A stretch of 7,062 nt of DNA, from positions 1 through 7,062 of the IMG/VR virus record IMGVR_UViG_2579778797_000011; one strand, written 5' to 3'. The first letter of the stretch is position 1, and every line of letters begins with the position of its first letter. The notes under the pieces are model-generated. The model saw only the letters and a program-made list of their open reading frames with translations, was not told where the DNA came from and made no database searches. Position numbers and translations under genes: made by a program. Shown here in pieces: positions 392-2,718 of the stretch. This DNA is from a virus. Taxonomy: Duplodnaviria > Heunggongvirae > Uroviricota > Caudoviricetes.

Positions 392-403
392 GAGAACTCC
401 TGA

Positions 404-428
404 TAAAAAACCCAGCCGAGGCTGGGTC
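404..428 (-). terminator. Rho-independent terminator downstream of the antirepressor-like gene
   Basis: Plus strand has A-run 405-410, then stem 411-416 cccagc / 421-426 gctggg with loop cgag. On the minus strand this reads hairpin followed by UUUUUUAU. Confidence 0.6.
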
Positions 429-445
429 ATTTCGTTGGTAATCTG

Positions 446-1348
446 TTAGTAGTGATGCAGTGAAGGCGGCAACTCTTTGTTCTTAAGCCTTTCCCATGCC
501 AGAAGGTTCGTCGGCCCGTCAGGCTCATAAATATCTATATCCCGCGTGTGATTAATTAAAACGCCCCTCGCCCTCCCGATGGTATACGAGAACTCATAGC
601 CGTAGTCGTGGCATATGCCGGAATAGCCAGACTGAATCAGTTTTAATGCGGGATACAACTCACGGAACAATGCCTGTGAGCGGTTGGCATAATCCCATAG
701 CCATACAAGGCTGTTTGCTTCTTTTGCGGAAAGCTCGTTGGTTTTCTTCTCTTGTTTGCCAATGAACTCACCTTCAAGCACTACCCTGTGGATGTACTCT
801 ACGGCTTGCGGTATCTGAGATGCATCAAGCTCTTCAATACTTTCCACATTGAAACGCTGATGAATCATTGCATAAGCTTCTGGGTACATTAGATGCTTTT
901 TGCTGACCAGCATATTTACAGCATCACGAAGCGGAGTCCTGTCATCAACAGATGTTTTCTTACGTGCATTTTCTGCCTTTCCCTTTGTCCAGTAGTCATG
1001 CAGCACAGTAAAGCATTCTTCCTGGTACTGAATCAGTTTATCGCGGATGTCAGCACGAACTTTCTCGGGGTTGATGCTGAACAGCCATCCATTTAACTTC
1101 TTCAAAGGAAGGCAGAGTAGCTTACGAAGCTTTCCATCAGCAGCAACCATATTCATATGAATACAGTTGAACTTATCTAGTTGTTTCATAAGTTTTTGTT
1201 GCTGAGTACCCCAGCTCATTCCGAGGTTTTCAACGATTGGCTTCATCGCAACATATGCAACTCCGGCAGCCATGGCGGTGATAATTTGCTGACCGTTGAA
1301 TGGTACGTAAGAGGTGTTCACTGCTTCTAAAATTGCTATACTATTCAT
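446..1348 (-). CDS. Phage antirepressor-like protein (Ant-like), 300 aa
   Basis: Long minus-strand ORF. Preferred start is ATG at 1348-1346 ([21 protein letters not shown]...) with GGAGA about 9 nt upstream, rather than the TTG at 1414 used by the ORF track. Product call rests mainly on context: it follows an Arc-like gene and faces a divergent Mnt-like gene, as in P22 immI. Direct sequence recognition is only tentative. Confidence 0.6.
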
Positions 1349-1410
1349 GTTGGTTTTTCTCCACGGATTTACTGACAACCGAAGCCCTGACTGTTCCCGC
1401 AGTTGGGGCT

Positions 1411-1614
1411 TCAACTTTCTGCTCTATCAGTTATATCTTTCCCTTCATATACTTCACCTATATTGCTAATGCTGGCAGAACATCCAAGATGCTTGTATCT
1501 TATGATGTCCAACACGCAGTCACTACACAGCATCCGACCTGTTTCTTTAGAGTAAATGTATGTTTGATCAGCGTCTGATTCGCTAATGCCGCAGAAACAA
1601 CATTCTTTACTCAT
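1411..1614 (-). CDS. Small Cys-rich (CxC...CxxC) putative zinc-ribbon protein, 67 aa, unknown function
   Basis: ATG at 1614-1612 overlaps the TGA of the upstream Arc-like gene (ATGA, 1611-1614). Purine-rich GAGAGGGGG sits about 7 nt upstream. Four cysteines arranged CCFCG...CSDC. AT-rich codon usage matches its neighbours. Confidence 0.55.
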
Positions 1615-1763
1615 ACCATTACCCCCTCTCTCTTCAAACTGTCTATCAGGCGCTTGATAACCTCTGAGTTAAACGACCTGCACTCTTCCTTTGCCCTGCT
1701 ACCTATAGCATCCTTTAACGACTGCGGCATCCTTACCAAAATCTTACTTATTTCTTTCTCCAT
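1611..1763 (-). CDS. Arc-like ribbon-helix-helix transcriptional repressor, 50 aa
   Basis: Preferred start ATG at 1763-1761 ([50 protein letters not shown]) with GGAGGG 4 nt upstream. RHH pattern (beta-strand ILVRMP, then xxSxNSE helix) and size are close to P22 Arc (53 aa). Confidence 0.7.
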   Translation of the reverse strand: MEKEISKILVRMPQSLKDAIGSRAKEECRSFNSEVIKRLIDSLKREGVMV

Positions 1764-1877
1764 GTTACCCTCCATACAAACAACTCTTTTAGAATACAAA
1801 AGATAGCAAAGTGAGTATATCTAGTCAAAATTTTTTTGCATACACTTTGCTATCAAATTGAATACCAAAGGTGTGAT
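1764..1877. promoter_or_regulatory. Divergent promoter/operator region between the Arc-like and Mnt-like genes
   Basis: 114-bp AT-rich intergenic region. Perfect 12-bp inverted repeat: gatagcaaagtg at 1802-1813 and cactttgctatc at 1843-1854, 29 bp apart. Minus-strand candidate promoter: -35 TTGACT (1828-1823), 17-bp spacer, -10 TATCTT (1805-1800). Plus-strand candidate -35 TTGCAT at 1836-1841; its -10 is ambiguous. Each repeat arm overlaps one promoter's spacer/-10. Confidence 0.55.
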
Positions 1878-2126
1878 ATGGCAAAAGGTGTGTCAATTTC
1901 TCCAACTACGGTAAGAATCCCTGAATCTTTACGCGAGGCTCTTGCTGTCAGAGCATCAAAAAATGGTCGCTCTGTTAACTCCGAGATCGTCATGATTTTG
2001 CAAGCCGCGATTGATGAAGATAGGTCGCCAAAGTCAGTTGAGTCATTTGCTCAGCAAGAAGCTGACAAATTCAAAGAGGCGCTGCTTGAGACGCTAAAGA
2101 CCATGTATGGTAAGGATGAAAAATAA
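1878..2126 (+). CDS. Mnt-like ribbon-helix-helix repressor, 82 aa
   Basis: Preferred start ATG at 1878 (MAKGVSISPTTVRIPESLREALAVRASKNGRSVNSEI...ETLKTMYGKDEK), not the upstream ATG at 1836. Shares the NGRSVNSEI motif with P22 Arc/Mnt, has a C-terminal tail resembling Mnt (Mnt ...DTLKDLYKKTT), and is the same length as Mnt. Its stop TAA (2124-2126) overlaps the next ATG (2126-2128). Confidence 0.75.
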   Translation: MAKGVSISPTTVRIPESLREALAVRASKNGRSVNSEIVMILQAAIDEDRSPKSVESFAQQEADKFKEALLETLKTMYGKDEK

Positions 2127-2662
2127 TGCTGCACACAATTCATTTCTTATGCCCCGTTAACACTGCCACTGTTGGGCAACTTCAGAACCACTGTCTCACC
2201 GCATTATCTCAAGGCGCAACTGAATTAAATATCCATATATCAAGTCAGGGAGGGGAAACTGCCGCTGGCTTTACTGCGTATAACTTTCTTAAGTCACTCC
2301 CTGTTACCGTTAGAACTCACAACATAAGCAATGTTGAATCCATAGCTAATATCGTTTTCCTGGCTGGCTCAGAACGTTTCGCAAACCCATTATCAAGATT
2401 CCTGTTACATCCTCTATTATGGTGCTTTGCCTCCCCAGCCGCCGACCATGCCAGATTGAGAGAGTACGGGAAATGCCTCGATAACGATCTTGATCGCTTC
2501 GTTGAGACGTTCAATATCGACATCGGAACCCATATTAGGTGGGCATCCCTGATAGCAGACTCGACCATTTTGGATGCTAACAAGGCTCTTGAGCATGGCA
2601 TAATTAATTCCATAAAAACTGCAAGGCTGGCATCCAATCAGGCAAACTGGTGGGTTGTTTGA
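2126..2662 (+). CDS. Stand-alone ClpP-fold (S14-like) serine protease, 178 aa, shortened at the N-terminus relative to ClpP
   Basis: By-eye alignment to E. coli ClpP: IHISSQGGETAAGFTAY vs IYLYINSPGGVITAGMSIY; SIANIVFLAG vs SMGAFLLTAG; LLHPL vs MIHQP; C-terminal LDANKALEHGIINSI vs LSAPEAVEYGLVDSI. Putative triad Ser72 (2339-2341), His95 (2408-2410), Asp145 (2558-2560), with ClpP-like spacing. Lacks roughly the first 25 residues of mature ClpP. Translationally coupled (TAATG) to the Mnt-like gene. Confidence 0.7.
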   Translation: MLHTIHFLCPVNTATVGQLQNHCLTALSQGATELNIHISSQGGETAAGFTAYNFLKSLPVTVRTHNISNVESIANIVFLAGSERFANPLSRFLLHPLLWCFASPAADHARLREYGKCLDNDLDRFVETFNIDIGTHIRWASLIADSTILDANKALEHGIINSIKTARLASNQANWWVV

Positions 2663-2685
2663 TGGGTAAATCATGATTACTCCTT

Positions 2686-2710
2686 ATAAAAAACCCACCT
2701 GACGGTGGGC
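2686..2710 (-). terminator. Rho-independent terminator downstream of L
   Basis: Plus strand has A-run 2687-2693, then stem 2694-2699 cccacc / 2704-2709 ggtggg with loop tgac. On the minus strand: hairpin followed by UUUUUUAUAA. Lies between the convergent L and ClpP-like genes. Confidence 0.6.
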
Positions 2711-2718
2711 ATAATCCA

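Follow-up and report, generated by a model that had tools for sequence, protein, structure and literature searches.

The stretch of DNA analysed here, called the window throughout, comprises 7,062 nucleotides (nt) of a Caudoviricetes virus (positions 1 to 7,062 of IMG/VR record IMGVR_UViG_2579778797_000011). Its list of open reading frames (ORFs) shows a 2.3-kilobase (kb) insert separating L from K in a lambda-like tail operon, and an imperfect direct repeat marks the two ends of that insert. The best explanation, held with a probability of roughly 0.8, is that the repeats are co-oriented, predicted intrinsic terminators that bound a P22-type immunity-I (immI) module, the “ant moron”, which moved hairpin to hairpin into the L-K junction. 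In the sense of the operon, which is the minus strand of the window, the module consists of a first hairpin (hp1), a relic Shine-Dalgarno (SD) sequence with an ATG, a ClpP-like and an Mnt-like gene (both antisense), putative divergent promoters, arc, a zinc-finger ORF, ant with the sar RNA, and a second hairpin (hp2). The boundary is of an ordinary, largely known phage moron kind, and no new kind of element. The features at the two ends are as follows:

1-391, minus strand: 5′ part of tail gene K (C40 peptidase), which runs off the window; start ATG at 391-389, placed from RefSeq relatives, empty sites, and lambda.
373-402, minus strand: junction linker of 30 nt, CAGGAGTTCTC ATG CTC TAT AGC AAT ATA TT; the K homology of empty sites ends at 372, and P22-like homology begins at 403-405.
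403-428, minus strand: hp2, the predicted ant terminator; stem-loop 411-426 (CCCAGC CTCG GCTGGG), U-run 405-410, then AT, from scan and fold.
2671-2684, minus strand: relic SD and ATG, AGGAGTAATCATGA, corresponding to the start region of the phrog_7586 gene (61 amino acids, aa) of P22-like prophages.
2686-2710, minus strand: hp1, left end of the imported module; stem-loop 2694-2709 (CCCACC GTCA GGTGGG), U-run 2688-2693, then AT, from scan and fold.
2710-2718, minus strand: spacer of 9 nt from the L stop codon to hp1, TGGATTATG, found only in the L-K context.
2719-3417, minus strand: tail gene L, with its stop TAA at 2721-2719, from the ORF list and the RefSeq annotation of relatives.

When the window is compared with itself, 384-426 against 2667-2709 is its longest and best direct repeat, aligning 43 nt without a gap and with 34/43 identities (79%) at a spacing of 2283. 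The best direct-repeat score of 20.5 is reached by 0/60 dinucleotide shuffles, which gave 13.3 ± 1.2 (maximum 18.5), and MAFFT aligns both repeat regions in register. Each copy, read on the minus strand, is a GC stem-loop with a tetraloop, followed by U6, AT, AGGAG, 5 nt, and ATG. The GGAG lies at 400-397 on the K side and at 2683-2680 on the L side, and the ATG at 391-389 and 2674-2672, with a spacer of 5 nt in each. A terminator scan of the minus strand returned GACCCAGCCTCGGCTGGGTT followed by TTTTAT at 428-409 and GCCCACCGTCAGGTGGGT followed by TTTTTAT at 2710-2693, and the predicted folds in a 55-nt context reach −20.4 kcal/mol for the K-side hairpin and −15.8 kcal/mol for the L-side hairpin. 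Both copies have the stems of 6-8 base pairs, tetraloops, and U6 of an intrinsic terminator on the minus strand; inspection of both hairpins found no U-run following either on the plus strand. An earlier note on this DNA had described a repeat with a minus-strand terminator, GGAG, and ATG, and the self-comparison, shuffle test, and terminator scan bear it out, with the copies sitting exactly at the two ends of the inserted segment. Its two strings actually lie at 396-430 and 2679-2712, the L-side coordinates having been one base off, and match in 29/35 alignment columns with one gap. That two unrelated AT-rich stretches with GC hairpins look alike by chance is extremely improbable: the elements are short and a homopolymer run supplies part of the identity, but the shuffles never reach the score and both hairpins are kept at the same positions in >100 loci.

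Relatives that lack the insert show what the L-K junction looked like beforehand. Among 95 related L loci surveyed in RefSeq, INPHARED, GTDB, and IMG/VR, only 10 carry an insert, of 1685-2347 nt. The other 85 are insert-free, with 36 nt from the L stop to a conserved K anchor in 63, 31 nt in 17, 30 nt in 4, and 33 nt in 1, and the module is therefore absent from the same position in close relatives, as expected of a moron. A scan of GTDB genomes with L gave 15 loci only, every junction empty. The insert-free junction reads L...CAG TAA ATCCCGGTTT ATG ACA CAG ACT GAA TCA GCG ATT CTG GCG CAT GCC CGG, and the spacer of lambda is TAA ATCCC ATG. Empty junctions have a spacing of 5-10 nt and neither hairpin, GGAG, nor SD sequence, and K begins MTQTESAIL there. 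Because the native junction is without an SD sequence, translation of K at these sites is probably coupled to that of L; once a 2.3-kb insert and a terminator hairpin separate it from L, K needs a start region of its own, which the linker would give. Comparison with the empty sites shows that the insertion swapped out the K start and first 7 codons, and that nothing was duplicated.

These junctions bear directly on the proposal of the earlier note, in which the hairpin, ribosome-binding site, and ATG of an ancestral L-K junction were duplicated on insertion, in the manner of a target-site duplication, with the L-side copy being a decayed K start. Direct repeats do flank the insert exactly, hairpin, GGAG, and ATG are in register, and even the first 2.7 codons after the ATG are similar (ATGCTCTA versus ATGATTTA), but the likeness past the ATG is not significant (p ~0.97). 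The comparison with insert-free relatives, on which the note had let this claim depend, finds unrelated L-K junctions in 85/95 loci and in lambda. A junction with a solo hairpin was also sought. A synthetic query that joined the end of L to the start of K through a hairpin and the linker yielded only empty sites, 83% covered in two pieces, in 5,426 complete E. coli genomes, and the gapped pattern AGTAATGGATTATG-N18-34-CAGGAGTTCTCATGC had 0 matches in IMG/VR and JGI metagenomes. The L-side copy, GGAG-ATG included, is found without a single altered base in P22-like prophages, which have no L and no K. Stx-type L-K cassettes, furthermore, carry the identical K linker and no GGAG-ATG on the L side. 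An origin from the ancestral junction is thus very unlikely. With target-site duplications the locus has in common only that direct repeats flank an insert: a duplicated target is present once at the unoccupied site, whereas this repeat is missing from empty sites and is part of the inserted DNA, and the Pfam search and ORF list reveal no transposase or integrase in the cassette.

The source of the module is seen in P22-like prophages. By BLAST, the P22-like prophage of E. coli AR_0017 matches window 1378-2709 at 99.55% identity, that of APEC O1 matches 405-1413 at 91%, and P22 matches 405-1418 at 83.6%. The Mnt-ClpP region (window 1830-2700) is 99.9% identical in nucleotides to the AR_0017 prophage and 99.2% to the APEC O1 prophage. 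Homology to P22-like loci reaches the outer edge of each hairpin, at 405 and at 2709, and goes no further, so that the shared segment is exactly window 405-2709. These prophages, which have neither L nor K, are arranged as a DNA-transfer (injection) protein gene, variable small genes, ClpP, an Arc-family (Mnt-like) gene, Arc, an optional ClpX-type zinc finger, Ant, and tailspike. In operon sense they carry ...AACCCACCGTCAGGTGGGTTTTTTATAAGGAGTAATCATGATTTACCC... beside ClpP and ...GACCCAGCTTCGGCTGGGTTTTTTTATGCCCAAAATTC... after ant. The second of the two hairpins, hp2, matches the “terminator” regulatory feature annotated for ant in P22 (NC_002371, 16012-16035); the match extends to 22 nt identical in relatives, CCCAGCTTCGGCTGGGTTTTTT, of which the window has the loop variant CTCG, and to the position 18-20 nt past the ant stop codon. 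Its activity here is a prediction. In P22 and in Stx-type L-K cassettes, hp1 overlaps the mnt stop codon (P22 ...LYKKTT*; Stx-type ...LLNKKPT*).

The immunity-I region of P22 was described by Sauer et al. 1983 (as cited in PMC8022706 and PMC2629481). Villafane et al. 2008 (PMC2629481) named the region the “ant moron”, counted the APEC O1 prophage among its examples, and treated it as a high-flux region inside the P22 late operon. The module of the window has the same genes in the same order: an ant product with P22_AR N and C domains, arc upstream of ant and divergent from an Mnt-type repressor gene of the ribbon-helix-helix class, sar over the ant start, and a predicted terminator after ant. 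Both also sit in a late operon from which they are largely not expressed. The window copy differs in adding a ClpP-like gene and a zinc-finger ORF, and in that hp2 leads into a K-specific linker instead of the tailspike leader. Its neighbours differ too, being L and K of a lambda-like siphovirus operon in place of gene 16 and tailspike gene 9, and it is therefore a transplanted copy and not the canonical locus. The junction of ant, hp2, linker, and K is found in 461/5,426 complete E. coli genomes (~8.5%). The literature discusses the ant moron and intra-operon terminators; no paper was found on the L-K copy or its boundaries, which is not proof that none exists.

Past the hairpins, the start regions at the two ends differ in origin. 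On the K side, ATG 391 is the annotated K start in RefSeq relatives, in agreement with the earlier note, and the linker brings K an AGGAG Shine-Dalgarno sequence, a new ATG, and five new codons, so that its N-terminus reads MLYSNILAHAR in place of the MTQTESAILAHAR of insert-free sites. The linker is identical in all 58 occurrences, which represent 36 distinct cassettes in 9 length classes, and always follows hp2. It was not found in P22-like loci or at empty L-K sites and was never seen before another gene. A search for the linker SD followed by a different first codon base had 0 matches. There are no synonymous variants: in IMG/VR, a degenerate back-translation of MLYSNILAHA and the exact string recovered an identical set of 48 loci, and in metagenomes the TAC version of the degenerate pattern had 0 matches. 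A kinship of the linker with the 3′ end of Stx-type mnt (AGTTCTC) was considered and is not significant (p = 0.16).

On the L side, the relic belongs to a different gene. Loci L257, L203, and L331 keep the 61-aa gene whole, preceded by this hairpin and SD (phrog_7586 1-61/61, E 3e-44), and in the ClpP type of module its body is replaced directly after ATGA by the 3′ flank of the ClpP-like gene. In P22-like loci the 14-mer AGGAGTAATCATGA abuts ClpP with or without a hairpin. The ATG at 2674 opens only a spurious ORF, as the earlier note had held: the 85-aa antisense frame has no Pfam family and is broken in loci L108, L332, L316, and L342, relatives cutting it to 2, 3, 14, or 51 codons. Judged by these contexts, the two GGAG-ATG motifs have different histories, one as a phrog_7586 start and the other as a K-specific linker.

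The resemblance of the two ends may nonetheless have a deeper cause, and a tentative possibility is common descent of a portable terminator-SD-ATG unit: a single junction element would have been duplicated or copied inside ant morons and used again when the module was joined to K, so that hp1 with its start region and hp2 with the linker of K would both derive from it and have since diverged. This proposal concerns only why the ends look alike and is compatible with a module transplanted hairpin to hairpin. Other junctions of the same grammar agree at a mean of 18/43 positions (95th percentile 26/43), compared with the 34/43 seen here, although this null set is small, with only 26 unrelated junctions. 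The only difference between the stems is compensatory (C-G to G-C), and AGGAGT..TCATG stands in register at p ~0.013-0.018 against shuffles, which ignore functional constraint. Hairpins are also interchanged before the same downstream gene. Either hp1 or hp2 stands ahead of the same downstream TTTTTGTTTAATGGAGAGTAGATGGGC in L281 versus L241/L303, and in L208 versus L002 a third hairpin, CCCGCTTAATCGCGGG, is found ahead of TTTTTTATAAGGAGTATTCATGATTTA. Because the same downstream sequence carries different hairpins in different phages, these loci suggest an exchange at or beside the U-run. Common descent is opposed by the demonstrably different provenance of the start regions, and by P22-like loci, where the likeness is limited to hairpin, U-run, and AT. 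The sequence of hp1 is constrained, moreover, by coding for the Mnt C-terminus. Finally, the exact hp2 21-mer CCCAGCTTCGGCTGGGTTTTT, a terminator with a UUCG loop, occurs in unrelated phage contigs (L164 at ~1139, L159/L160, and L223), where it follows a ribonucleotide reductase gene or separates the scaffold gene from the major capsid gene. Short terminators of identical sequence therefore originate independently of each other, and such likeness can be convergent.

The hairpin-bounded design is general. Across IMG/VR, the two hairpins share a strand and hp1 is always the upstream one; the distance between them takes 36 different values, from 74 to 3594 nt. The contexts upstream of hp1 comprise ≥15 different genes and those downstream of hp2 ≥10; hp2 follows a conserved Ant C-terminus in many phage contexts and precedes the tailspike leader, the K linker, a second antirepressor-like gene, or baseplate-type genes. 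Hairpin covariation is not counted as evidence, there being only two stem types in loci gathered by near-exact patterns. In the ~3.1 Mb (megabases) of loci examined, there are 44 distinct junctions composed of hairpin, T5-9, (A/G)T, GGAG, and ATG. It is conceivable, but decidedly unlikely, that these hairpin/U-run/AT/SD/ATG units are a family descended from one ancestor and act as portable “junction adaptors”. They would then insulate a moron, restart translation of the displaced gene, and provide homology arms of 24-30 nt through which late operons of the podovirus (tailspike), siphovirus (L-K), and baseplate type exchange ant-moron interiors.

An alternative is that the hairpins are primarily recombination sites, “boundary sequences” for module exchange, with their terminator-like shape secondary. 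Mosaic breakpoints lie 0-9 nt from the hairpins in many contexts, and the tracts shared with Stx-type and P22-like relatives overlap only in the 24-nt hp1 segment, as would be expected of such sites. However, conserved functional elements amid variable DNA yield the same breakpoint pattern without special recombination, and the perfect operon-sense U-runs of both hairpins are not needed for recombination. No recombinase is found among the cassette ORFs by ORF list, Pfam, or phrog searches, so that the module is also unlike an integron cassette. In the P22-like loci L319 (minus strand, ~8496-8590) and L348 (~4838-4932), the whole mnt-arc-ant block is deleted, leaving a 74-nt gap between hp1 and hp2; these two natural immI deletions ran through CCTTCAG microhomology within mnt and ant, not through the hairpins. 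A primary role in recombination is thus unlikely.

For the preferred reading, in which the hairpins are terminators at the ends of a transplanted immI module, we infer from sequence that their function is most likely to insulate the module within a late operon antiterminated by Q. In a lysogen, the Mnt-like repressor would hold Pant off, and hp1 would block unmodified RNA polymerase arriving from the porin/L side. Without this block, polymerase would transcribe ClpP-mnt in antisense and continue into arc-ant in the sense direction, expressing ant. The arc-ant transcript itself would be terminated at hp2 (t_ant), ahead of K-I-J. During lytic growth, Q-modified polymerase would pass hp1, hp2, and the porin terminator, and K would then be translated from the linker. 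Antitermination by lambda Q and P22 gp23 is an established property, on which the proposed read-through is based.

The history of the locus can be outlined in the same terms. Because the linker is invariant, a single founding insertion at L-K is proposed to have fixed it. The cassette interiors would later have been exchanged with P22-like prophages, with the 24-nt hp1 segment and the 3′ half of ant as homology arms. The window shares only 2686-3500 with the Stx-type L-K cassette, which is the L side up to and including hp1, and this tract and the P22-like tract (to 2709) overlap only in 24 nt of hp1. Such a limited overlap agrees with a later exchange of the interior through crossovers in hp1 and in ant.

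Several points weigh against this account. That hp1 and hp2 terminate transcription in this prophage, and that Q lets polymerase read through them, is deduced from the DNA, and the Q gene lies outside the window. In P22, hp1 is not annotated as a terminator, and its stem there contains a G-U pair. The searches with variant SD sequences, back-translations, and metagenome patterns found no source for the linker. Shared function alone, moreover, may not explain all of the similarity between the two copies, because their identity exceeds that of other terminator-SD-ATG junctions.

The design has precedents. Morons of lambdoid phages (Hendrix et al. 2000 as cited in PMC2629481; “The moron comes of age”, PMC3594210) are independently transcribed units with their own promoter and terminator, inserted where related phages have two neighbouring genes side by side. 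The L-K module is placed in the same way, and its terminators and its one promoter-like site, on the minus strand, are predicted. It differs from these morons in having a predicted terminator at each end, both against operon-sense transcription, and in that the start of the downstream gene is rebuilt. Predicted Rho-independent terminators are also present within the antiterminated late operon of phage L, and the analysis of that phage proposed that intra-operon terminators in P22-like late operons may stop transcription that lacks antitermination (PMC8022706); in the window they are instead paired around a regulatory module. The locus offers a base-level view of a regulatory module moving between phage morphotypes, in which the segment shared by P22-like and lambda-like phages starts and ends at two terminators and an essential downstream gene, K, is rescued by a short linker with a new ribosome-binding site and start codon. 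As a worked example, it illustrates how a moron is built and, for late operons whose genes are tightly packed, a “terminator then SD-ATG” grammar. Stx phages, in which antirepressors influence induction, also carry the antirepressor module at L-K.

The interior of the module contains the following features:

446-1351, minus strand: ant, P22-type antirepressor gene; Pfam P22_AR_N (PF10547) 8e-45 and P22_AR_C (PF10548) 2e-26 over 449-1351; 83.6% nucleotide identity to P22 ant and 91% to APEC O1.
1349-1416, plus strand: sar antisense RNA; Rfam RF00262, 95.6 bits (gathering 43), E 3e-20, full length.
1411-1614, minus strand: ORF of 67 aa with a CxxC...CxxC pattern in the arc-ant interval; phrog_7150, 3e-50; named “ClpX C4-type zinc finger protein” in a RefSeq relative.
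1611-1763, minus strand: arc-like repressor gene; Pfam Arc (PF03869) 4e-12 over 1614-1763, and RefSeq annotation of relatives.
1764-1877, no strand assigned: putative divergent promoter/operator region; TTGACT-17-TATCTT at 1828-1800 on the minus strand, matching the Pant/Pmnt position in the P22 annotation.
1878-2126, plus strand: Mnt-like ribbon-helix-helix repressor gene; Pfam Arc (PF03869) 1e-10 over 1878-2123; phrog_2685, 5e-32.
2126-2662, plus strand: ClpP-like gene, 178 aa; Pfam CLP_protease (PF00574) 2e-11; joined to the Mnt-like gene via TAATG.

From the putative promoter region, the arc-ant unit is directed along the minus strand, in operon sense, and the unit of Mnt-like and ClpP-like genes along the plus strand; a simple scan gave no promoter-like site for the latter. 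The sar match overlaps the ATG of ant (1351) and the 3′ end of the zinc-finger ORF. The label of phrog_2685, “partition protein ATPase”, is also that of P22 mnt in RefSeq, and this common label suggests that phrog_2685 is the family that holds P22 Mnt. The 67-aa ORF has no Pfam or NCBIfam match, and phrog_7150 has no assigned function; the ORF is present in some ant morons and missing in others, such as locus L002, whose cassette is ~200 nt shorter. The ClpP-like protein falls far under the NCBIfam ClpP cut-offs, its nearest families being phage head-maturation proteases. Its gene has relatives at ~70% nucleotide identity in other E. coli prophages (L103 and L104), where lysis genes lie on one side of it and terminase genes on the other. 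The immunity module holds both a ClpP-like protease and a free ClpX-zinc-finger-like protein.

The tail genes of the window are all on the minus strand, in the order H (5331-7025), M (4997-5338), a porin gene (3627-4790), L, insert, and K, and gene order and names match in close E. coli relatives in RefSeq. The OmpC-like porin gene (387 aa, Porin_1 1e-140) is a second moron, between M and L (3417-4999, minus strand). It changed the last codons of M (..EQVVN* to ..EQVIR*) and removed the TGATG overlap of M and L seen in porin-free relatives. Its end forms a third junction of the same design:

3417-3453, minus strand: porin-moron end, with a predicted terminator at 3453-3436, then TTTTTTAT, GGGCGGATAT, and the ATG of L (3417), from scan and fold.

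A minor observation concerns the start of K in lambda (NC_001416, locus L006, 14127-14276). The RefSeq K start at 14276 leaves a “gap” of 148 nt after L, and an in-frame ATG 5 nt past the L stop gives the N-terminus MTQTESAILAHARR, the same as in other prophage annotations. The annotated lambda K start looks to be too far downstream.

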